Origin: an uncultured bacterium
GTDB lineage: Bacteria > Acidobacteriota > Thermoanaerobaculia > Multivoradales > JAHZIX01
Assembly: GCA_965368975.1 (NCBI GenBank)
Contig: CBDUPA010000015.1
Coordinates: 1 to 64,000, forward strand
Reading direction: 5' to 3'
Length of the DNA: 64,000 nucleotides
The notes beneath the pieces were generated by a model. It was given only the letters and a program-made list of their open reading frames with translations. It was not told the DNA's origin and did no database searches. Numbering within the stretch: the first letter of the stretch is position 1; every line of letters begins with the position of its first letter. This document shows, piece after piece, positions 263 to 12,306 of this stretch. The position numbers and the translations under genes are program-made.

Positions 263-1252
263 TCACCGCACCGGCTGGACCTGGCACCACTGGCCAGCAC
301 CCGCAACAGTGATCGAGGCGTACAGCTCGACACCCACCACTCTCCCGGCCTCTTGGAGCCGATGTGTGAAGCGCTCATCCTGCCGGCTCGGCATTGGGTT
401 GCCGGACGGGTGGTTGTGCCCGACCACGACCGAGCGTGCATTAGCCAGCAAAGCCGGCGCCAAGATGCCGCGCGGCTCGGCTTGCGCCCCGGTCAGGATC
501 CCAATGTAGGGCACGTCCCAGCCGATGACTCGGCGGTTGCCGTCCAGGAAGAGCACGGCCAGAGCTTCGCGGTCGTAGCCCTGCAGCACTTGCCAGAGCA
601 GCGCCGCCGCGTCACCACCAGCACAGACTCGGGGATAGGTGTGCAGAGGTGCGCTCGCCTCCCGCACCAGCTCGACGCGAAAGCGCGGCACCTTCGGCAG
701 CAACGGTTCCTTGGCGCGCCAGTATGGGCTCGTCGGTCGGCTCTTGAGGAGGTTGGCACGGCAGGGCCGAGGCACTCTTTGATCAGCAGGCAGGGCAGCA
801 AGCAGCGGAGCGAAGGCATGCTCATCGAGCGGGATCTGTCGCAGCTCAGCTTCCAACTCTGCGCTGGGTCGAAAGTCTGTCCAGCCGAAGCGATGCACCC
901 GTTCCCCCACCTCGAAGCCAACCTCCTGGGCCAAGTCGCGGAACTTTCGGCTGTGGTAGCCGCGATGGCAGCAGTCCTTGACGCCGCGCAGTCCGTTGAC
1001 CCAATGCACCATCGCGTGCAGCAGCGACGCCAAGATCTCGGACTTCGAGCCCGTCAGTGCTGACACGGGAACGCGCACGACCTGAGGCTCTGCATCTTGC
1101 CGATGATCGGCGAGACGTCGCAGGCCCTCGACGCGGACTTGGAGTGGATGTCGCGCAAGCTCCGGTCCGAAGCGGTCGAGCAGCTGCTCGCAGCAACGCT
1201 GCAGCTCCTGCTCAGCTAGTGCGACGTGGGTGCCGGTGTCCATACCCGGCAT
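263..1252 (-). CDS. SprT-like/JAB (RadC-family MPN) fusion protein
   Basis: C-terminal E...HNHPSG-x4-S-xx-D JAB motif; N-terminal LLHAMVH...YHSRKF resembles a degenerate SprT-like HExxH region; paralog at 30591-31580. Confidence 0.8.
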   Translation of the reverse strand: MPGMDTGTHVALAEQELQRCCEQLLDRFGPELARHPLQVRVEGLRRLADHRQDAEPQVVRVPVSALTGSKSEILASLLHAMVHWVNGLRGVKDCCHRGYHSRKFRDLAQEVGFEVGERVHRFGWTDFRPSAELEAELRQIPLDEHAFAPLLAALPADQRVPRPCRANLLKSRPTSPYWRAKEPLLPKVPRFRVELVREASAPLHTYPRVCAGGDAAALLWQVLQGYDREALAVLFLDGNRRVIGWDVPYIGILTGAQAEPRGILAPALLANARSVVVGHNHPSGNPMPSRQDERFTHRLQEAGRVVGVELYASITVAGAGQWCQVQPVR

Positions 1253-2001: not shown

Positions 2002-5000
2002 ATGCCTGTAGGGCCGCTGCCTTTTGAGACTCTCGATCCGAAGACATTCGAACGCTTCTGCTTTGCTCTGCTGGCGGCGGAGGGGCACTCCGAGCTGCGC
2101 CACTGGGGCGACGCCGGCAGCGAGAAGGGCTGCGACCTAGTCAGCGTCGACCAAGAGAAACGTCGAGTGGTCACGCAGTGCAAGCGGGTGAAGGAACTGG
2201 GACCGACCGATGCCGAGAAAGAGGTCGCCAAGGTTCTGGACCACCAGCCCGATCCCAGGCCGGAAGTCTGGTCGCTGCTGGCGACCTGTGCGCTATCCCG
2301 AGAGACGGAGAAACGCGTCAAGGCGAGAGTAGGGGACGGCTTCGAGACGGAGTTCACCGGCCGTACTGAACTCGAACACCGGGCCCGTAAGCATCCTCAT
2401 GTCCTGGAACTCTACTTCGGCTCCCCCTATCGCAACGATCCACCGTTGTGGTGGATTAGCGCCGCACCTCTGGATGAGCAATGGGCGCATGCGTTCGCGA
2501 AGGATCTGCAAGCCTGCCTGCGGAAGGTGAACCGCAAGGCGAACGTCGAAGTCGGGATTCCGTCGGACAAAGTGTCCTGGCCCGAGGTGCCCGAGACCGC
2601 GAGCGTTGGGATCGTCCTAGTATCCCCCGAGGCCCTGGCGCACAGCAGCTTGCGGCGACTTTGGAGGGAGAGTTTGTGCCAGCCATGCCTCCAGAGCGGC
2701 AAGCGCACGCTGCTGGCACTGGACTTCGCTGCAACCCCGTGGCCGGCATGGCTGCAGGAGCGCTTCGATCGCGTGGACTGGCCGGCAGACTCGGATAGCG
2801 ATGCCGATCCATATCGCATCAACCTGGCTCAGATCATCTCCAAATACATCGGACTCACGGAGAATGGCGACCTACCTGTATCCGTGAAGAGCCCCGATTC
2901 CATGTCGCGGCGGTTGCCGGAGAGCCTGCGCCAGCGCCTGGTCAATGCCGTAACACCCTTCGCGGGCAAGACCCACGAGTACCGAGCACTGGCTAGTGCC
3001 CTTGGACTCGACGGCCGCAAAGCTCTGGACGATTTCGAGACGGCTGAAGAGCGCGCCGCTGCCGCCTTGATCCTGGCTACCGGCGACGACGATCCCAGCG
3101 CTGCCGGGCAGCGCGTCCTTGCCATGATCCAGGATGAATTCCGCGACTCTCCGGCCGGCTTCGAGCATTTCGGTGCGTTACGCCGAGCGCTGCAGCGACA
3201 CCAAGCTTCTTTACCCCAGGAGCAGCAGCACGACCTGCTCAGCACCTGGCTCGAGTACATCGAGTCTACGCACCGCCGTCTCGTACCGGCTTTTCAACGA
3301 GACCAGGAACTGATTCTGCTCGATCGCGTCTACGTCGAGCTGCAACTGACTCCAGACCAGCAAGAGCGATTCACTGCCCGGCGGCTCCCGCAGCTGGAAG
3401 GTAGTGCCAGCCCTGACGGGGTGGTAGGGCACCGAGACGAGGAGCACTTGGCACACACCCAGTCCCTTGAAGAACTTCTCGCCCTTGACCCGGCTGACTA
3501 CTCCTGGGTCACCCGGCGCTGGATCGTGCGCGGCGACCCGGGCTCTGGCAAGACGACGCTGCTGCGCCACTTGGCCGCCAAGCTGGCCAAGGACTCGATG
3601 CGGCGCTGGGTCCCGCTGTTCCAATCCCTACCCGTCTTGCTGCGAGAGGGCAAGAACCTGCTCGAACGGGTCGAGACGCTGCTGGATGGCGAGGGCCTGA
3701 GCCGCGTGCTAGATCATGCGGGAGAGGAGGGACACCTGCTCGTTCTGCTCGACGGACTCGACGAAGTCGGCCCCGAGGTTCGTCCCCAGGCCGAGCAACA
3801 GATTCGCCGTCTCGCCGACCGCTGGCCGGAGACTCCGATCGTCGTCACCACCCGGCCGATCGGGTATCGGCGTTTCGCGGGAGACTTTCGAGAACTCCAA
3901 CTTCAGCCCCTCGATCACCAGCGCAGGCTTGGCTTCCTGGCTCGCTGGTTCGGTCGCAGCGAGGAAAAGGAAGATCACGAAAGAGCGATCACAGCTCTCC
4001 AGGAACTCGACGGTCCGGGCTTCGAAGAACTTGCCGGCAATCCGCTCTACCTGACCCTAATGGCCTTGCTGCTCGAGGATGATGTCTCACCGTCCCGCAA
4101 CCGCTCCAAGCTCTACGACCAGGTCTTTGAGCTACTGCTCGAAGGCAAGCACAAGCTAACCGCCCGCGACAAGAGCTTCGAGAAGATCCAGCGTCCGGAG
4201 CTGGTGCGCCAGGCGCTGCGCCTGCTCGCCGAGTCGATGACCTTCGACAACTGCGATGCCGAGCGCTTCGGAAAGCTGCAAGAGCGCTTGTATCGAGATG
4301 AGCTGGAGAGCGTGCGCGAGGAACTGCGCAAGGTGCATTGCTGGGACGGCAAGGTGGACCGCTTCCTGGAGGACATCGCCGAGAAGGTCGGCATCCTCGG
4401 CCCGCACGACGGTGAGGATGCGGACTGGCGCTTCTGGCACCGCACCTTCAAAGAGGCTCTGACCGCTGAGCGGATGGCCGAATGGGACTCGGAGAAGTTG
4501 CTGCAGCATGCGCATGACATCCAGGGGCAAGAGAGCCGCTGGGCCGAACCCTTCGCGTTGGTGTGCGGCGTCGTCGACGATGCGGATGCCTTGCTGAAGC
4601 AGTTGCTGGAGGCCAACCGAGATCTCGCTCTGCGCGCGCTGCCGACGGCGCAGAACGTCAGCGACGAAACGGTGCGCGAGGTGCTGGAACTGACGGACAA
4701 GTGGACCGAGCGCTCGAAGGTCTATGAGCAGTTGCCGGAGCTGGTCGGGGACCCGGAGCGCTGCTTGCGGCTGATCGATCGGCTGCGCCAGGGAGTTCGC
4801 AACGGCAATGACCTCTACTTCCTGGACCATGCGGCCTGGCAGGTGGGACAAGCCTCGGAAGGCCTGTGCGAACGAGCGGAAAACCTGCGGCACCGGATCT
4901 ACGACGAGTTGCCAAAGGTCGAGGATCCTGAGCTACTGCGCCGTTGGCGGCGCCCGGACGGCGAGGAGAAGGATCTGTGGTGTCGAGTTCCTGCGGGAGT

Positions 5001-5733
5001 CGGCTGGGTGGGTTCCCGAGACGATGAGGTCGACGACGATGACCCGCGAGGGCATGAGATGCCGCGGCATCGGGTCGAGGTTCAGGGGGACTGCTGGCTG
5101 TTGGCGGTACCGATCACGAATGCCGTGTACGCAGCGTTCGATCCGGGCAAGAACTCTCATCGTTGGAAAGGCATCGACCCAGAAGAGCTAGCTGCACACC
5201 CCCGGGTGCTTGTGACCTGGTACGAAGCGGTCTCTTTTTGCCGCTGGCTGGCCTGCCAGCCGGGTTTCGAGGGTGCGGCGCCCAGCCTGCCGGAAGAGGA
5301 AGTTTGGGAGTACGCGTGCCGGGCGGGATCGGAGACGCGGTATTGGAATGGCGAGGACGAGGAGCAACTGGCAGAGGTGGCTTGGTTCGGGGAGGACCCT
5401 CTCAAAGGGACCACACATCCTGTAGGTGGAAAGCTCGGCAACGAGTTCGGGCTCTACGATGTACACGGCAACGTCTGGGAGTGGACAGCTTCGGGCTTCG
5501 ACGAAGCACGCTACCAGGGGCGCACCTCAGACTCGCCACATCCGGTCGATCCGACGACCCACCCGGCAGATCTTGCCGCCTCCCCCCGCGTCGGGCGCGT
5601 GTTGCGCGGCGGCTGCTACGGGAGCACGGCTCAGCGGTGCCGGTCGGCGTACCGGCTCAGGAACGACCCGTGGGACGGGTGGAACGAGAACGGGTTCCGC
5701 GTGCTGCTGTCCTCCGCCCCGAGCGGCCTTTGA
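2002..5733 (+). CDS. DGR target 1: Mrr-like restriction endonuclease + TIR-like + NACHT NTPase + C-terminal FGE-sulfatase (CLec-fold) domain
   Basis: FERFC...GCDL...QCK nuclease-like motif; Walker A GDPGSGKTT, Walker B LLVLLDGLDE; WEYACRAG, GLYDVHGNVWEW, RGG...GFR FGE motifs; GGAGG RBS. Confidence 0.9.
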   Translation: MPVGPLPFETLDPKTFERFCFALLAAEGHSELRHWGDAGSEKGCDLVSVDQEKRRVVTQCKRVKELGPTDAEKEVAKVLDHQPDPRPEVWSLLATCALSRETEKRVKARVGDGFETEFTGRTELEHRARKHPHVLELYFGSPYRNDPPLWWISAAPLDEQWAHAFAKDLQACLRKVNRKANVEVGIPSDKVSWPEVPETASVGIVLVSPEALAHSSLRRLWRESLCQPCLQSGKRTLLALDFAATPWPAWLQERFDRVDWPADSDSDADPYRINLAQIISKYIGLTENGDLPVSVKSPDSMSRRLPESLRQRLVNAVTPFAGKTHEYRALASALGLDGRKALDDFETAEERAAAALILATGDDDPSAAGQRVLAMIQDEFRDSPAGFEHFGALRRALQRHQASLPQEQQHDLLSTWLEYIESTHRRLVPAFQRDQELILLDRVYVELQLTPDQQERFTARRLPQLEGSASPDGVVGHRDEEHLAHTQSLEELLALDPADYSWVTRRWIVRGDPGSGKTTLLRHLAAKLAKDSMRRWVPLFQSLPVLLREGKNLLERVETLLDGEGLSRVLDHAGEEGHLLVLLDGLDEVGPEVRPQAEQQIRRLADRWPETPIVVTTRPIGYRRFAGDFRELQLQPLDHQRRLGFLARWFGRSEEKEDHERAITALQELDGPGFEELAGNPLYLTLMALLLEDDVSPSRNRSKLYDQVFELLLEGKHKLTARDKSFEKIQRPELVRQALRLLAESMTFDNCDAERFGKLQERLYRDELESVREELRKVHCWDGKVDRFLEDIAEKVGILGPHDGEDADWRFWHRTFKEALTAERMAEWDSEKLLQHAHDIQGQESRWAEPFALVCGVVDDADALLKQLLEANRDLALRALPTAQNVSDETVREVLELTDKWTERSKVYEQLPELVGDPERCLRLIDRLRQGVRNGNDLYFLDHAAWQVGQASEGLCERAENLRHRIYDELPKVEDPELLRRWRRPDGEEKDLWCRVPAGVGWVGSRDDEVDDDDPRGHEMPRHRVEVQGDCWLLAVPITNAVYAAFDPGKNSHRWKGIDPEELAAHPRVLVTWYEAVSFCRWLACQPGFEGAAPSLPEEEVWEYACRAGSETRYWNGEDEEQLAEVAWFGEDPLKGTTHPVGGKLGNEFGLYDVHGNVWEWTASGFDEARYQGRTSDSPHPVDPTTHPADLAASPRVGRVLRGGCYGSTAQRCRSAYRLRNDPWDGWNENGFRVLLSSAPSGL
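5584..5724 (+). repeat. DGR variable repeat VR1
   Basis: 5584-5658 and 5692-5724 differ from TR only at TR adenines (10 changes); 5659-5691 does not align with TR. Confidence 0.8.
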
Positions 5734-5744
5734 AGTTTGATCAT

Positions 5745-6039
5745 TGATCTTAGAGAGTGTGGATGAAGCTGGCAGGCCGGCAGGGCTTGCCGGCCGACTC
5801 GGCCGTTTCTGCCGGCAGTAGATCGCCAGAGTTCGCCAGATCGCCAGAATACTTGCCAAGGCGAGCCAGATTGGGCGGGTCGTATCCGGCAATATCTGCC
5901 GCGCTTGGCACCCGAGCCACCTGAGTTCTGACCGTCAACAGCGCAACTTTACCGGCCTTCTCAGGGTTCCAGCCGATCTTGCCAGGGTTGCCGGCAAGAC
6001 TTGCCACCCGCACCTGGCAAGCCGGCCAAACATGCCACC
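5745..6039 (+). repeat. ~290-bp non-coding element downstream of VR1 (copy 1)
   Basis: Co-linear with the reverse complement of 7741-8035, roughly 75-80% identical by eye; starts tgatc(t/a)tagagagtgtgg. Confidence 0.85.
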
Positions 6040-7035
6040 TCAGAACAGAATGATGCCAACGCTGGAGGCGATGGTCCGTTCCAATTCGACGTCCAAGCTG
6101 CCGTCGAGATGCTGGCGGATGCGGCGGTGCAAGCGCCGCAAGGGGCGCTTCAGACAGTGGATATCCTGGCGCGAGATCCGGTGGCCCAGGGCGTTGAGAT
6201 GACCATGGCACGAGACGATACGGGCTTGCGGGTGCTTTAAGCGCAGACCGCGCTCGGCCATCAGCCACTCAGCGATCCTCTTGCGCCAGCGCTCCAGCTT
6301 GCGGCGACCGTCGGCGAAATAGAAGGTGTCGTCGAGAAAGCGCAAGTAGGCCGGTACCTTCAGCTGCCGCTTGACCCAGTGGTCGAAGCCGTTGAGGTAG
6401 ACGTGTGCCGCCAGCATCTGGCTGCTGTGGGCGCCGATCGGCAAGCCACGACCCGGCGGAGGCCAGTCGGGGTCGAGCCCAGCCAGCTTGCGCAGCTCCG
6501 GGTGCCCGTGTAGCTCGTCACCGATCGCGAGCAACCGAGCGACGAGATCCAGGAACCTGACGTCCCGAATGCGCCGACTCAGCAAGGCGAGCAGGATGTC
6601 GCGGTCGATCGACGGAAAGTAGGAGCGGACGTCCAGGTGCAGGGCAAAGCGGTAGCGGCGTTGAAACTCCTGCAGGCGCAGCACCGCCCGGTGCGTGCCG
6701 TAGCCCGGACGGCAAGCGTAGTCGTCGTGGGTGTAGGTCGGCTCGAAGATCGGGTCGAGCTGGTGCACCACCGCGGTCTGCACGATGCGGTCGCGCAGCA
6801 GGGTGCGGGCGATGACGCGCGGCTTGGGATCGCGGATCGAGACGAAGTCACAGGGCTGCGGCCGGTAGGTGCCCGCCGACAACTCGGCCTGCAGATCCTC
6901 CAACTGCTCCTCCAGGGTGAAGAGGAACCAGGCCACGTCTCGCCTCCGACGCTTGCCGCGCGTCGTCTCCCTGGCTGCCCGCTCCAAGGCACAGGGCTGG
7001 CAAAGGCGCTCGAAGAGGCCGGAGGTTGTACGCAT
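6040..7035 (-). CDS. DGR-type reverse transcriptase
   Basis: DPKPRVI...RDRIVQ, YACRPGYGTH, LDVRSYFPSID, DGR-type GLPIGAHSSQ, LRFLDD, LGHRI; adjacent TR/VR pair. Confidence 0.95.
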   Translation of the reverse strand: MRTTSGLFERLCQPCALERAARETTRGKRRRRDVAWFLFTLEEQLEDLQAELSAGTYRPQPCDFVSIRDPKPRVIARTLLRDRIVQTAVVHQLDPIFEPTYTHDDYACRPGYGTHRAVLRLQEFQRRYRFALHLDVRSYFPSIDRDILLALLSRRIRDVRFLDLVARLLAIGDELHGHPELRKLAGLDPDWPPPGRGLPIGAHSSQMLAAHVYLNGFDHWVKRQLKVPAYLRFLDDTFYFADGRRKLERWRKRIAEWLMAERGLRLKHPQARIVSCHGHLNALGHRISRQDIHCLKRPLRRLHRRIRQHLDGSLDVELERTIASSVGIILF

Positions 7036-7117
7036 GGTGCGAGGCCAGCACACCCGGGCGCTCAGCCAGCTGATCCAGCCGGCCTACGAGGACGGGCGGC
7101 ACACACGTGGACCAGGA

Positions 7118-7636
7118 CTAGGACTGGGGTCCACGGACGGGAACAGGCCTGCTCGGGACGCCCGGCCACAACGGCCGGAGTCGCGGGTTCGGGGCGGAGG
7201 ACAGCAGCACGCGGAACCCCTGGTTCCTGGTCCTGATCCTGGACTCGATGGCAGGATCGTCAGCGTTCCGGTACGCCGACCGGCACCTCTGTGCCGTGTT
7301 CCTGTAGCTGCCGCCGCGCATCACGCGCCTGACGCGGGGTGGCCCGTTCCCTGAAGTTGAAATTCGTTGACTGGTGGTAGCTGGGAGCGCTCGACACGCT
7401 TGCGCCAGCCGCTGTGCCGACCGTGCCGGCAGAGCGTGCTCCACCACCAACCGCACCTGATCCGCCTTGGCTTGGAGACCGCGCCGCTGTGCGTCGGTGA
7501 GTGGCAGGTTCGACCGATCGATCCACCAGCGTCCATCTCGCTTCACACCCGGCAGATCGCCACGGGCCAGCTGGGCCCGAACAGTGCGTGGACTGCGGCC
7601 CATCAGAGTGGCGGCGGCGCGGGTGGAGAGTTCCAT
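7118..7636 (-). CDS. Excisionase-like HTH protein whose frame runs through the TR (putative DGR accessory gene)
   Basis: MELSTRAAATLMGRSPRTVRAQLARGDLPGVKRDGRWWID is an HTH_17/MerR-like winged-HTH pattern; it occupies the usual avd position upstream of TR and RT. Confidence 0.7.
   Translation of the reverse strand: MELSTRAAATLMGRSPRTVRAQLARGDLPGVKRDGRWWIDRSNLPLTDAQRRGLQAKADQVRLVVEHALPARSAQRLAQACRALPATTSQRISTSGNGPPRVRRVMRGGSYRNTAQRCRSAYRNADDPAIESRIRTRNQGFRVLLSSAPNPRLRPLWPGVPSRPVPVRGPQS
7186..7341 (-). repeat. DGR template repeat (TR)
   Basis: Adenine-rich master copy of both VRs just upstream of the RT; all 10 differences from VR2 are at TR adenines. Confidence 0.95.
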
Positions 7637-7740
7637 GACTTTGCTCTCTAATGGTTAGTTTTCGCCTGCTCTATGTATTTAGACGCTCCTCGGCAGCGGA
7701 GTGTTAATTTGCCGTGTTCGGTGTCAACGGTGTGCACCTC

Positions 7741-8035
7741 CGGCGGCAGGATTTGCCGGCTTGCCAGCGCGGACGGCAATTCTTGCCGGCAGCCCTGGCA
7801 GGATAGGCCGAAACGCTGAGCTGGCCGGCAAAGTTGCGCTGTTGGCAGCCAGACCTGAGGTGGCTCGGATGCCAGGAGCGGCAGATCTTGCTGCGTGCGG
7901 GTGCCCAATCTGGCCGGCCGCTGGCGAGGGTTGCGGCGACTTGGCTAAGTCTGCCGACTTACTGCCGGCAAGATCGGCCAGGGCAGCCGGCAAGCCGTGC
8001 CGGCCTGCCGGGTTCACCCACACTCTCTATGATCA
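7741..8035 (-). repeat. ~290-bp non-coding element downstream of VR2 (copy 2)
   Basis: Inverted homolog of 5745-6039; begins a few bases after the target-2 stop codon. Confidence 0.85.
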
Positions 8036-8040
8036 AAGGC

Positions 8041-11000
8041 CTACTGCCGGCTCGGGGCGGAGGACAGCAGCACGCGGAACCCCTGGACCCTGGTCCAGAA
8101 CCTGGACACGAAGGCAGGATCGTCAGCGTTCCGGCACGCCGACCGGCACCTCTGTGCCGAGTTCCAGTAGCTGCCGCCGCGCATCACGCGCCTGACGCGG
8201 GGTGAGGCGGCAAGATCTGCCGCTGGCGCGGCAGGATCAACCGAATAGGTGCCCTCAGACGGCCGCTTCTTGTACCGTTCCGCATCCCACTCGGAGAGCG
8301 CCCACTCATACACATTGCCATGCAGGTCGTAGAGGCCCCACGGATTCGCAGGCTTGCCAGCAACCTGGTGGGTTCGAGAACCTGAGTTTTCGGTATACCA
8401 GCCGACCTCTGCCAGCTGCTCCTTCCCATCCCCCTTCCAGAACCTCGTTTGCGCCCCGGCCCGGCAAGCGTACTCCCACTCTTCTTCCTCAGGTAGCCGC
8501 ACACAACAGCCTGCGAACTCCTTCAAGCTCTCCAGCCAGCGGCAGAACGACACGGCTTCGTACCAAGTGACGTTGACCCGAGGGTGTGCCGATAGCTTCT
8601 CTTGCTCGACTCCTTCCCACGTCTTCGGCGCCTTGCCTGGATCGAAGGCCGCGTACTGTGCATTGGTTACCGGCACCACGCCCATCCAGTAGGGCCGCAC
8701 CATCTTCACCCGATATCGAGGCCCTTCGTCGTCGTCTCTATCTTCCTCAGCCTCCGGACTCCCGACCCATCCCTCTCCTTCTGGAATCTCCCTCCACAGC
8801 GGCACCCGGCCATCCAACTTGGACTCGACGCTCTGGAACAACTCCGCATCCTTCGGTGCCGGGATGTGTTCGAAGAACCGATCCAGCACGTCTGCCACCC
8901 GCGACTCTGCCTTCCACCGTCGCCCGGCTTCCTCGGCAATCCACCACAGCCAGAACAGGTCGAAGCCGTTGCGCTCTCCTTGCCGCAGCTGCTCTACCAG
9001 GGCCAGACAGGCGTCTGGATCGCCGAGTTGGTCCGGGATGCTCTCGAAGACCTGTGCCCGCTCGTCCAGGTCCTCGGTCAGGTTCAGCGTCCGCCGTACC
9101 GTCTCCGGCTCCAAGCCCTGGGCGAAGACCGCCGCGCGTACCGCGAGCTTGGGGTTCGCCTCCCCCAGCTGCAACAGCAGACCGTCGGCATGATCCATCC
9201 CACCTGCCAGCAAAGCCAGCGGCTCCCCCCAGCGTCCCTCGCCGCCTTCTTCCAGTTGCCGAGCCCACTCCAGCAGAGCCTCGCCGCCACTCCTCTCGGC
9301 GTAATGCTCCTTCAAGCGCTCTGCTGCAAGGGCTTCGCGAAAGGTCCGGTGCCAGAAGCGCCAGTCGCCGCGACCACCGTCGTGGGGCCCCAGGATCTGC
9401 GTGCGCTCGTGGACGTCGTCTAGGAAGGTGAAGAGATTCCGCTTCCAAGCCGCAACGAGGCCCAAGCGACCACACAACTCTTCCGCTGTCCGTAGCCGCC
9501 CTTCGAGCTTCTTGTTCGCTTCGGCCCAGCAATCATCCTCAGTCATACCAAAGGCCAGGTGCTGCAGCGCCTCGCGGACAGCGTCTTGGTTTGGCATCGG
9601 CTGCGGCTCACGCCGATGCTCGCCGTCGAGCAGCAGTTCGAAGATCTTGGCGTACAGCTCGGCCAGCCTGCCGGAGGGCTGAACTCCTTGCTCCCAGAGT
9701 ACCGCCAGCAACGTCAGGTAGAGCGGGATGCCGCTCAGGTCTCGCAGGCCGCGTGTTTCCGTGAGGTAGGTAATCGCCTGCGCTGCTTCCACTTCGGGCG
9801 TCCACTCCGGTTCTTCGCGATGCGCAGGTTGCCCTGCGTGCTCGAACCAGGTTTCGAGGAACTCCTGGCGCCGAGCGACATCCAGAGGTAGAAGGTCGAG
9901 CCGTGGCAACTCGTCCAGTGCCTGTCCGCGGCCGATGGGTCGGCTACTCACGACCACCTTGCACTTGGACCACGCTTCGTCCTCTCGAAGCTGGGTCAGA
10001 AGTCGGCGTGCTGGGGCTCGGCGTTCCCGTGGAATCTCGTCAAAGCTGTCGAGCAGCAGTAGCAGGCGACCTTCTCGGCCGGCAGCTGCCAGAGCGTCGC
10101 GTACTGGGGAGAGGTTGGCCAGGCCGAGGCCGTCGGTGGCGTGAGTCAGAAGCTCCTGGCCTGTCTCGATCAGGCGAGGAAGCGAGACGAAGACCGGGAT
10201 GGCATCGTGGCTGCGCTCGCGGGCCAGCCGTGCTGCCAGGTGACGCAGGAGCGTCGTCTTGCCGGAGCCCGGCGGACCTTCGAGCAGCCACCGGCCTTCG
10301 TTCCAGCTCGGGGTGCCGATGGGCCAGTCGAGCACCTTGTCCAGCGTCGTCGGATGGCCGAGGAGCTTGCCGTCTTCGACATCCTCACTCCGCACGCCTC
10401 GTCCGGACTGGTGGTGGGCAGGCATGACCTTGACTTCGACCCAGGCTTGCTCGATCAGGTGCAGTTCGGCAGGGCGGTCGAAGTGGTCGCCGAGGCGGCG
10501 GTGCTCGGCCTCGACCTGGCCGAACCAGACGTCGAGCGGATCGGGTGGTTTCGGGGTCTTCGGCGTCGTTGTGGTGGTAGCGGTGGAGGGCTCGGGCGCG
10601 ACTGTGGCTTTGAGGAGTGCTTGCAGCACGTCACCAAGAGCGCTGTGGTCCTGGTGCTGCTTACCGTCGGCATCGACCGAAGTCTCTACCGGGTAGAAGA
10701 CCGCCCGCAGGTGAAACGGCTCTTCGACTTCAGCCCGATACACCTCGACGGCCTCCAACTGATCCTCAGCGAGCCCCATCAACGCCACGTGCCGCGCGTC
10801 TCCGACCTTGCGTGTATCGGCTCGGGACAGGGCTTGGTCGGCCGTCAAACGAAGCCAGGCATCTTGGAAGCTGAAGCCGACGATCACCAACTGCTCGCGC
10901 GTCCACAGCTGCTCGAAGAGCTGGCGGTAGCGCTCGTCCCCGTAGGCACACCGGTAGTCCTCGGCACCCAGGATCACGCTGTCCTTGTCGTCGTACTGCC

Positions 11001-11523
11001 CGTGCGCGTGCAGGATCGGAGTTTCGCCGTCCTCGGCCGGCCGGTCTTGGAGCCAGAGGCCAACACGGTCGTGCCGCCAGCCGAAGTCGTGGACGATCTG
11101 CCTCGGCCGCTCGGCCTGGCAGGCAAAGGTCAACGCGGGGTCGTAGTTGGTGGTCACGAAGGAGCGGAAGCCGAGCCGGGCGAGCGCGGCATGCGTCGCG
11201 GTGTAACGCAGGCCATCGGCGGTCTTCTTGGGACCGAACAGTCCACGAATCTCCTCCGCAAACTTTCCTTCCCCGAGCCGCTTGCGCAGTTGCAGAGCTG
11301 CCTGCAGAGGGTCGACCTGGCCGCACCAGGCCTTCTTCAGCGCCGCTGGTGCACCGCCGGCAACAGCAGCATCGGCCAGATGCTCGATCAACTGGGACCA
11401 CAGCGGATAGAGACCGGCGGACGCGCCAGCTCCGACAAAGCCGACAGCCTTGCCCGTCCTCAGAATGCCGAGGCAGGTCTCAAGCGCGCCTTTGTTGCCA
11501 GGAATGTCTTGCCAGGAAATCAT
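8041..11523 (-). CDS. DGR target 2: SIR2-like + NACHT NTPase + C-terminal FGE-sulfatase (CLec-fold) domain
   Basis: GFVGAGAS, TTNYD, HAHG, VGFSFQD (SIR2-like); GPPGSGKTT and LLLLLDSFDE; WEYACRAG, GLYDLHGNVYEW. Confidence 0.92.
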   Translation of the reverse strand: MISWQDIPGNKGALETCLGILRTGKAVGFVGAGASAGLYPLWSQLIEHLADAAVAGGAPAALKKAWCGQVDPLQAALQLRKRLGEGKFAEEIRGLFGPKKTADGLRYTATHAALARLGFRSFVTTNYDPALTFACQAERPRQIVHDFGWRHDRVGLWLQDRPAEDGETPILHAHGQYDDKDSVILGAEDYRCAYGDERYRQLFEQLWTREQLVIVGFSFQDAWLRLTADQALSRADTRKVGDARHVALMGLAEDQLEAVEVYRAEVEEPFHLRAVFYPVETSVDADGKQHQDHSALGDVLQALLKATVAPEPSTATTTTTPKTPKPPDPLDVWFGQVEAEHRRLGDHFDRPAELHLIEQAWVEVKVMPAHHQSGRGVRSEDVEDGKLLGHPTTLDKVLDWPIGTPSWNEGRWLLEGPPGSGKTTLLRHLAARLARERSHDAIPVFVSLPRLIETGQELLTHATDGLGLANLSPVRDALAAAGREGRLLLLLDSFDEIPRERRAPARRLLTQLREDEAWSKCKVVVSSRPIGRGQALDELPRLDLLPLDVARRQEFLETWFEHAGQPAHREEPEWTPEVEAAQAITYLTETRGLRDLSGIPLYLTLLAVLWEQGVQPSGRLAELYAKIFELLLDGEHRREPQPMPNQDAVREALQHLAFGMTEDDCWAEANKKLEGRLRTAEELCGRLGLVAAWKRNLFTFLDDVHERTQILGPHDGGRGDWRFWHRTFREALAAERLKEHYAERSGGEALLEWARQLEEGGEGRWGEPLALLAGGMDHADGLLLQLGEANPKLAVRAAVFAQGLEPETVRRTLNLTEDLDERAQVFESIPDQLGDPDACLALVEQLRQGERNGFDLFWLWWIAEEAGRRWKAESRVADVLDRFFEHIPAPKDAELFQSVESKLDGRVPLWREIPEGEGWVGSPEAEEDRDDDEGPRYRVKMVRPYWMGVVPVTNAQYAAFDPGKAPKTWEGVEQEKLSAHPRVNVTWYEAVSFCRWLESLKEFAGCCVRLPEEEEWEYACRAGAQTRFWKGDGKEQLAEVGWYTENSGSRTHQVAGKPANPWGLYDLHGNVYEWALSEWDAERYKKRPSEGTYSVDPAAPAADLAASPRVRRVMRGGSYWNSAQRCRSACRNADDPAFVSRFWTRVQGFRVLLSSAPSRQ
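8049..8204 (-). repeat. DGR variable repeat VR2
   Basis: Ungapped match to TR (offset 863) with 7 A>T and 3 A>G changes. Confidence 0.95.
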
Positions 11524-11641: not shown

Positions 11642-11965
11642 TCAGCCCACAGAACCAGGGTTGAAGTTCTGTAGCCGACCCTGCAGCCGCGTGGGATTCC
11701 GTGACTGATGGAAGACCGCAAAGATATAGACGAGGGCTGGTTCCTGGACGACGTAGTAGAAGACGGAATACGGGAAGCGGTTCAGCGGTGCTCGCCGAAT
11801 CCCCCGGTGCTCCACGGAATAGAGCTGAGGATTCTGCGTGATCCGCGTGACGGTGCGCTGCAGCTCATCGCGCAGAGCCACCCCCAAGCCAGGGCTCTCG
11901 TTCTCGTACCAGTCGCGCGCTTCTCGGAGCTCATCGAGCGCTTCGGCGTCGAACTCGACCCTCAT
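11642..11965 (-). CDS. RelE/ParE-family toxin
   Basis: EALDELREARDWYE...IRRAPLNRFPYSVFY...IFAVFHQSRNP pattern; ATGA overlap with the antitoxin. Confidence 0.9.
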   Translation of the reverse strand: MRVEFDAEALDELREARDWYENESPGLGVALRDELQRTVTRITQNPQLYSVEHRGIRRAPLNRFPYSVFYYVVQEPALVYIFAVFHQSRNPTRLQGRLQNFNPGSVG

Positions 11966-12186
11966 TCGTCGGGCCAGAGCTGCGCCTTGGCTTCTTCCCA
12001 GCTCACACTCTGGCGAGAACCGGCCAGGAAACCGTCGAGCCGCTGGTCCAGCGTCCGGCGCTGAGCCTCAGTCAGAGACGATTCCGCCGTCTCTTGCTCT
12101 ACACTGCTCCAAAGCGACTGAGCCAGCTTGGCCCGCTCATCGATCGAGAGCCTCAGAGCTTCGTCTTGAAGTTGAGTCAGTGTCAT
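11962..12186 (-). CDS. Addiction-module antitoxin
   Basis: EALRLSIDERAKLAQSLWSSV...LDQRL...VSWEEAK pattern directly upstream of the toxin; start reassigned to ATG 12186. Confidence 0.85.
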   Translation of the reverse strand: MTLTQLQDEALRLSIDERAKLAQSLWSSVEQETAESSLTEAQRRTLDQRLDGFLAGSRQSVSWEEAKAQLWPDE

Positions 12187-12306
12187 GCTGGCTAGAATAC
12201 CACGCAGCCTGGGAGACACCGTCAGCATCGCAGGCCAAGCCGAACTGGCGAGAGCATTGCACCAAATTTCATGCCAGCAGGCCCCGATGGAGGCCCGCAC
12301 CACGGC

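Follow-up and report, generated by a model that had tools for sequence, protein, structure and literature searches.

Four classes of DGR accessory gene (avd, HRDC, MSL and CH1) are distinguished in the available text of Wu et al. 2018 (PMC5758913), in which the Avd protein is also described as essential in the Bordetella phage DGR. The same portion of that article names no HTH_17 or excisionase gene among the components of DGRs, its sole HTH entry being HTH_40. In the accessible sections of Doré et al. 2024 (PMC10907252) one unrelated helix-turn-helix gene is reported beside a MoxR system, and degenerate loci are described as well. Here, we analysed a DGR cassette in which an open reading frame (ORF) with an excisionase-type helix-turn-helix (HTH) domain runs through the entire template repeat (TR), and we find that this ORF is very probably a deletion chimera in a decaying element.

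The window, i.e., the whole stretch of DNA under analysis, comprises 64,000 nucleotides of an uncultured member of the Thermoanaerobaculia (Acidobacteriota) whose genome is available as a draft of 59 contigs and 7.13 Mb. The ORF under study belongs to a DGR cassette on the minus strand, where it lies about 400 nt beyond target 1 and is followed by the reverse transcriptase (RT) gene. Target 1 (8041..11523, minus strand, 1160 aa) has the Pfam architecture SIR2_2 - NACHT - FGE-sulfatase, the last of these domains having a C-type-lectin fold, while target 2 (2002..5733, plus strand, 1243 aa), which converges on the RT gene, is composed of Mrr_cat, NACHT and FGE-sulfatase domains. The VR is located at the C-terminus of each target, and the FGE-sulfatase match has an E-value of 1.9e-35 in target 1 and 3.4e-33 in target 2. 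The RT gene (6040..7053, minus strand; RVT_1, E 3.2e-12) is apparently intact, with a probable ATG start at 7035. The motif IGxxxSQ is a mark of DGR RTs, and it is present here as IGAHSSQ together with FLDD, a variant of the catalytic motif which also occurs in the intact cassette of the nearest relative (genome G023). Target 1 and the HTH gene are separated by a spacer (7637..8040, minus strand), about 300 nt of which are conserved with positions 5744-6039 after target 2 and with both copies on contig C9 of the same genome. Promoter and terminator scans of the region 5700-8100 found none. The cassette is flanked, just upstream of target 1, by a likely type II toxin-antitoxin pair (11642-12303, minus strand) in which an ORF of the ParE toxin family (107 aa) is preceded by an Unstab_antitox ORF (113 aa), and just outside target 2 there is a 329-aa ORF with a RadC-like JAB domain (263-1252, minus strand; E 1.5e-25).

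The TR (7183..7341, minus strand) and VR1 (8046..8204, minus strand) form a 159-nt direct repeat of 93% identity. All 10 differences fall on adenines of the TR, of which there are 29, and none of the 130 non-A positions is changed. No VR of the genome other than VR1 fits the present TR. VR2 of target 2 (5584-5722) fits it at its two ends only, and it shares this pattern with two VRs on contig C9 (138739-138880 and 140981-140837) of the source genome (G000): all three match the TR in the 5' third, where the differences are all at adenines, and in the last ~35 nt, and their middle part has 12-13 nt indels and non-adenine changes. We regard these three VRs as orphans, last written from versions of the TR which are now gone from the genome. 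Short contigs (130-134 nt) of a related strain, from runs X1-X4, align with TR positions 7194-7339 with 9 substitutions and 12 letters missing in the middle of the TR; their sequence corresponds to a shortened TR or VR, as is also found among the orphan VRs.

The ORF itself (7118..7636, minus strand) starts with ATG and has 172 codons. An excisionase-type HTH ORF upstream of the TR, reading through the whole of it in the VR frame, had been described in an earlier note made from the sequence alone, and this description was correct: Pfam HTH_17 matches residues 3-44 (E 7.6e-6; 26.5 bits, against a cut-off of 27 bits), the TR makes up codons 99-152 in the VR frame, and residues 100-150 match the end of target 1 with 82% identity. 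The stop codon announced beyond the TR is also present (7120..7118), at a distance of 65 nt from the TR end and not of 68 nt as given in the note, so that the last part of the ORF consists of 62 nt of the TR-RT spacer and this stop. The TR is open in one frame only, the other two being closed by stops at 7323 and 7262; a random join would therefore be read through the TR with a chance of one in three. As the note had stated, there is no Avd gene in the window: PF22296 (bAvd), PF05635 and an Avd profile constructed in this work were all without a match there. A Pfam scan of the ORF (7636..7118) returned HTH families only, with no match to either of the two Pfam Avd models.

We searched 201 genomes of the same order in six frames, and the HTH was found in 16 of them (the source genome included). 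The earlier note had considered that its homologues might have no association with DGR RTs; they mostly adjoin them. At nine of these loci the ORF has 185-209 aa and is composed of the HTH, a long helix, a linker and ~115 more helical residues. An Avd profile built from homologues of the Avd encoded on contig C16 of the source genome was run over the loci, and in each of the nine full-length loci it matched the ORF that directly follows the HTH+bundle gene. Seven of these matches are full length, and those in L018 and L028 are partial only, the profile being a narrow one. The canonical C-terminal motif of Avd, IGR..GGW, is found just upstream of the TR in the G023 locus (L012).

The same gene order was found in 8 of 10 more loci from named genomes, i.e., Acidobacteriota and Thermoanaerobaculia MAGs, Engelhardtia mirabilis Pla133, a Phycisphaeraceae MAG and Pseudomonadota MAGs; the other two match the first 44 residues only and have neither Avd nor RT. 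One locus from a phylum-wide sample has this order as well. When three duplicates are removed, 13 loci have a full-length HTH+bundle gene (L012=L036, L013=L037, L015=L038, L018, L020, L028, L029, L030, L034, L039, L040, L041 and L046), and avd and RT follow downstream on the same strand in every one of them. Thus, the ancestral order can be given as target(VR) - HTH+bundle - avd - TR - RT - convergent target. Of the six named loci examined for VRs, five (L036-L038, L040 and L041) yielded both, and L039 a single one. None of the 13 intact loci has an HTH ORF that reads in frame through the TR.

Wrecks of various kinds were encountered in other genomes. The HTH is joined in frame to the second half of avd in L014 (Pfam bAvd 27.6 bits, below the cut-off), the bundle is joined to avd in L042, a frameshift is present in L016, and HTH stubs were found in L017, L019, L021 and L031, several HTH-only stubs having no RT within 1.5 kb. 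It appears that the pair of HTH+bundle and avd genes is prone to deletion.

The possibility of a truncated HTH fusion, raised in the earlier note, was substantiated by these comparisons. Homologues of residues 1-95 which are longer, with 185-209 aa and a four-helix-bundle C-terminus, do exist beside DGR RTs, and the profile of the relatives' family matches the window at 7403-7636 (E 2.3e-25) with its positions 1-78 of 189 only. Codons 1-77 of the ORF (7406..7636, minus strand) are the remnant of an HTH_17+four-helix-bundle gene, covering the winged HTH and the next long helix. This remnant is 86% identical to the copy on contig C9 and 69% to that of G023, and, as in the family, it lies downstream of the target gene and upstream of avd-TR-RT, all in one orientation. 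A homologue search with residues 1-95 which admitted proteins of similar length only, and thereby excluded the ~195-aa forms, gave two homologues of 81 and 84 aa.

We then characterised the family as a whole. A profile of nine full-length sequences, compared with 1.84 billion representatives, matched 262 proteins at E <= 1e-30 and 648 at E <= 1e-10. Among the best 150 of these matches nearly all have 178-220 aa and are aligned end to end, from which the full-length HTH+bundle form can be taken as the rule. In the phylum-wide sample, with the best 8 candidates per genome scored, the family profile was found in 2 of 401 genomes (E <= 1e-10), the source genome being one of them. In the AlphaFold model (mean pLDDT 85.6), a winged HTH is followed by a long helix, and residues 88-195 form a four-helix bundle. 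HTH_17 scores 35-38 bits in six of the seven relatives scanned (21.7 bits in L030) and matches all 121 members compared at E up to 0.1, while TIGR01764 reaches up to 35.6 bits in relatives. BldC and Xis are listed by Foldseek for the N-terminal part, and when the family profile was run against the PDB sequences (hmmsearch), Pukovnik Xis (4J2N) alone was matched, in the HTH part (E 3.2e-4). The family is basic, with a mean pI of 10.2 over 121 members.

With regard to the bundle, structure searches (Foldseek, VIA) placed the PF05635-type proteins 2gsc (Z 14.4; rmsd 2.3 with 107 residues aligned) and 2rld, and also Avd itself (4dwl/8ub8; Z 11.7-11.9), among the best matches, and unrelated bundles gave Z 11-13. 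In the ESM Atlas the bundle reached TM 0.86/0.72 to PF05635 clusters, which we treat as a lead only. On the level of sequence profiles, hhalign returned a probability of 0.1-0.3% both for the 121-member family against 26 Avds and for the bundle domains alone against 36 Avds (the neighbours' own included), and Avd families are absent from the 25 most frequent of the 60 Pfam families matched by the 121 members. As modelled, the bundle resembles Avd in fold and in size, with a null result in the comparison of sequence profiles. The accessory domain whose loss had been suspected in the note is indeed deleted, but the bundle is not itself the missing Avd; this candidate is ruled out by the separate canonical avd which follows downstream in every intact relative examined.

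Two members of the family are named only "helix-turn-helix domain-containing protein" at NCBI. We found no description of an HTH+bundle DGR gene in the full-text literature, of which the supplements could still contain one, and the gene goes unmentioned in the available parts of Kaur et al. 2020 (PMC7159879) and of Sharifi and Ye 2021 (PMC8934634). The intact HTH+bundle gene is a widespread DGR-linked gene for which a description was not found in the literature.

The borders of the deletion were determined by BLAST comparison with the nearest relative, G023. Positions 7621..7428 of the window correspond to L012 1734..1541 and positions 7423..6602 to L012 866..66, and 674 bp of L012 are without a counterpart in the window. 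In L012/L036, residues ~70-196 of the HTH+bundle ORF, its stop codon and approximately the first 100 codons of avd fall within the missing 674 bp; the Avd ORF of G023 has 133 aa and begins within an ATGA, where its start codon overlaps the stop of the gene before it. The junction is the 8-nt microhomology GCGGCTGG (7405..7412, minus strand), as judged by the ends of the BLAST blocks and by the homology with C9, which ends at 7407. This GCGGCTGG resembles the linker sequence preserved in C9 on the one hand and the part of avd that encodes GGW in G023 on the other.

Beyond the junction, the last 29 codons of avd and its TGA stop (7323..7321) are still present (7321..7410, minus strand), in a frame that differs from that of the ORF. 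This remnant translates cleanly, 19 of its 29 residues are identical to the C-terminus of the G023 Avd in a count made by eye, and its TGA is found, as it is in G023, no more than 20 nt into the TR. The HTH frame enters the avd tail shifted by one base, and residues 78-98 of the ORF are the tail in the wrong frame. The assertion of the note that no Avd-like ORF is visible must therefore be amended: the gene is gone, while a 29-codon piece of it persists at 7410..7321 in another frame than the ORF. Moreover, about three quarters of avd were taken by the deletion, which is more than the single C-terminal domain that the note had supposed to be lost.

These comparisons show the deletion and its borders, the ancestral gene order and the loss of avd, and the present state very probably arose as follows. 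The ancestral cassette consisted of a target with its VR, the gene for the HTH and four-helix bundle (~195 aa), a canonical avd gene with overlapping start, the TR, the RT gene and the convergent target. A single deletion of ~670 bp then joined two short GCGGCT(G/T)G stretches, of which one belongs to the linker behind the HTH and the other to the GGW motif near the end of avd, with the loss of the bundle domain, its stop codon and approximately the first 100 codons of avd. The HTH frame was led in this way into the 29-codon avd tail out of frame, then into the TR, and further to the first stop 65 nt beyond. The TR is met in the one stop-free frame, since the VR is coding in that same frame, and the read-through is a by-product of a deletion that put the HTH frame into the open one.

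Independent data were provided by public metagenome contigs from four runs of one study, in which they have small shares (0.07), and which were compared over positions 5500-8600. A 1397-nt contig, found in three of the four runs, covers 7310..7412 and 7409..8033 and has 669 extra letters between these two parts. In the fourth run a contig has its end at 7412, and on the gene strand, in the avd frame, it gives the IGR..GGW motif of the Avd C-terminus. Relative to the window, these contigs have 5 mismatches over 103 positions on one side of the junction and 55 mismatches plus 2 gaps over 625 positions on the other (91-95% identity). Because of this divergence of 5-9%, they can be assigned to a related strain that still has the missing piece, and from the undeleted contigs together with the outgroups it follows that the state of the window is the derived one. 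When the HTH part is compared with that of the undeleted relative, the differences listed comprise 12 synonymous and 3 non-synonymous codon changes, 31 further differences across 5500-8600 being outside this count. As synonymous changes dominate in these listed differences, the HTH part still appears to be under constraint, and the N-terminal HTH product may still be made and used.

No cassette of the window's type is still complete in the source genome. The paralogous cassette on contig C9 (135376-144560, L009) has kept both targets and is ~81% identical to the window's at the DNA level, with 94% identity in the RT. There, avd, the TR, the larger part of the bundle domain and ~40 codons at the start of the RT gene were lost by an independent deletion of ~1 kb, and the HTH frame continues for 255 codons. 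A third remnant, on contig C2 (346110-346800, L033), consists of the FGE-sulfatase end of a target, an HTH stub of 80 codons that has a stop of its own, and the last ~75 codons only of an RT gene. The family profile is covered at positions 1-78 in the window, 1-104 in C9 and 1-64 in C2, out of 189. The genome-wide Avd search advocated in the note gave a single match to PF22296 in the whole 7.1-Mb genome, on contig C16 (67.3 bits) and none at the window locus; PF05635 has two sub-threshold matches, on C40 and C16, and our own Avd profile has no match at the window locus, C9 or C2. A tblastn search of the genome with seven bundle domains found nothing except a 35-residue stub in C9. The C16 locus (88891-97202; L010 4891-13202) is a canonical and apparently complete DGR with a 1072-aa target, a 124-aa Avd and a 371-aa RT, and a further ORF of 1070 aa is a candidate second target. 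Homologues of the C16 Avd carry the Avd name in Chloroflexota and Anaerolineae MAGs.

The DGR in the window is most likely dead or dying. The element on its own is presumably unable to perform mutagenic homing, and the deletion is probably recent since the TR and VR1 differ at adenines only.

We consider it unlikely that the deletion is real and the element nevertheless works, be it that the Avd of C16 acts in trans or that no Avd is needed, with the truncated HTH binding its sites. What speaks for a working element is the intact RT ORF with its motifs and the preservation of the TR, of the 65 nt upstream of the TR and of the TR-RT spacer. The restriction of TR/VR1 differences to adenines would also fit a DGR that is still active, the C16 protein is the one bona fide Avd in the genome, and the changes in the HTH part are mostly synonymous. 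In addition, 29% of DGRs have no accessory gene according to the available text of Wu et al. (PMC5758913). However, the C16 Avd is just 35% identical to the Avd of G023, the nearest stand-in for the lost one, and the RT of C16 just 39% identical to that of the window. An avd of their own is kept by all 13 intact relatives, and the plainly dead state of the sister cassettes on C9 and C2 points to a decay of the whole family in this genome.

It is far less probable that the deletion is an artefact of the assembly or a minority variant, and that the organism has kept an intact HTH+bundle gene and avd. The draft is divided into 59 contigs and the undeleted form does occur in the related metagenome contigs, but the latter diverge from the window by 5-9% and thus belong to another strain. 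A microhomology of 8 nt would presumably be too short to mislead an assembler, the cassettes on C9 and C2 have different deletions, and there is no spare copy of the missing sequence in the genome. Finally, the other reading offered in the earlier note, a non-canonical accessory protein whose C-terminal part is deliberately translated from the TR, is hardly credible: the ORF is indeed uninterrupted, in the VR frame and preceded by a purine-rich stretch a few bases before its ATG, but this arrangement is absent from the related loci examined, where the HTH gene and avd end before the TR or within its first ~20 nt, the read-through crosses the avd tail in the wrong frame (residues 78-98), the HTH frame of the C9 paralogue enters the RT gene, out of frame, instead of the TR, and a 54-residue end piece of a C-type-lectin domain is unlikely to fold alone.

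To our knowledge, the way in which DGRs find their target DNA is poorly understood outside the Bordetella phage. The ~300 nt after the target stops are more alike (79-83%) than the coding ends that precede them (74-77%), and this conserved stretch of ~300 nt is found only at four targets, on contigs C15 and C9. Within ~300 nt after the stop of each target there are 3-4 strict sites of the palindromic 13-mer GGCA-N5-TGCC. The genome of 7.13 Mb has 252 strict sites, 19 of which are located in the 5.5 kb of the two cassettes, and when 1 mismatch is allowed, 14 sites are present in the 1086 nt flanking the two VRs of the window, against 0.96 expected. An exact 13-mer, GGCAGATCTTGCC on the gene strand, is located 5 nt upstream of VR1 (8209..8221, minus strand), and the identical 13-mer GGCAGATCTTGCC lies 7 nt upstream of VR2 (5565-5577). 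The spacer 7637..8040 has GGCA-N5-TGCC at 7989, 7775 and 7745, as well as sites with 1 mismatch. Altogether, the site regions are 5565-5577, 5779-6005, 7745-8001 and 8209-8221 in the window, and 138699-139183 and 140566-141000 on C9. No GGCA-N5-TGCC was found near the TR.

Outside the source genome, the 13-mer GGCAGATCTTGCC stands just before a VR in G023 and G155 and is present in L042 and L043, and sites were recorded at L036, L037, L042 and L043. In the more distant loci, GGCA-N5-TGCC is absent from the VR edges of L038, L040 and L041 and occurs a single time in L039; it would therefore be specific to a sub-clade if it is an operator. On the basis of their sequence and position, the GGCA-N5-TGCC sites may be operator or targeting sites of the cassette's HTH protein. 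Going one step further, we suggest tentatively, as a possibility that we would not yet favour, that the intact HTH+bundle protein is a fifth, dedicated DGR component, which would be co-transcribed with avd-TR-RT and would place its HTH on the 13-mers bracketing the VR, thus marking or regulating the DNA to be rewritten. If this were true, the window would present an element after the loss of the bundle domain of this fifth component together with Avd. The role of the partner gene can be tested, since Engelhardtia mirabilis Pla133 is a cultured carrier.

An ORF that seems to translate the TR is wreckage in this case, which calls for caution when "Avd-less" or "TR-coding" DGRs in draft genomes are interpreted as new mechanisms. 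The locus also provides a dated, base-resolved example of the death of a DGR cassette. Moreover, the comparison brought to light a partner gene, widespread and without annotation, of DGRs by which STAND/NACHT conflict proteins are diversified, and a candidate cis-element that separates VR from TR.

As to known systems, the N-terminal 45 residues of the ORF are like those of the small HTH proteins Xis and BldC (HTH_17, TIGR01764; PDB 4J2N, and 6AMA for BldC). In contrast to these proteins, the HTH of the window's family is not linked to an integrase; the intact protein combines it with a four-helix bundle and is encoded inside a DGR operon. Like the accessory genes surveyed in the available text of Wu et al. 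(PMC5758913), the HTH+bundle gene is small, its product is basic, and it is located between the target and TR-RT; however, it is none of the four classes distinguished there and occurs alongside avd, not instead of it. The gene lost from the window belongs to the family of the BPP-1 Avd (PDB 4DWL; RT-Avd-RNA complex 8UB7/8UB8; PF22296), the copies in relatives matching an Avd profile at E 1e-21 to 2e-41, but the window no longer encodes an Avd, and the ORF under study is not one. The degenerate DGRs of Thiohalocapsa PB-PSB1, as described in the accessible part of Doré et al. 2024 (PMC10907252), are likewise represented by several related cassettes per genome. There too, the C-type-lectin ends of STAND-type conflict proteins are diversified, and some copies are without RT, TR or accessory gene. 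Compared with PB-PSB1, the decay in the window can be read base by base, with one microhomology deletion fusing two accessory genes and the TR. The finding itself is an ordinary, though unusually legible, case of DGR decay.
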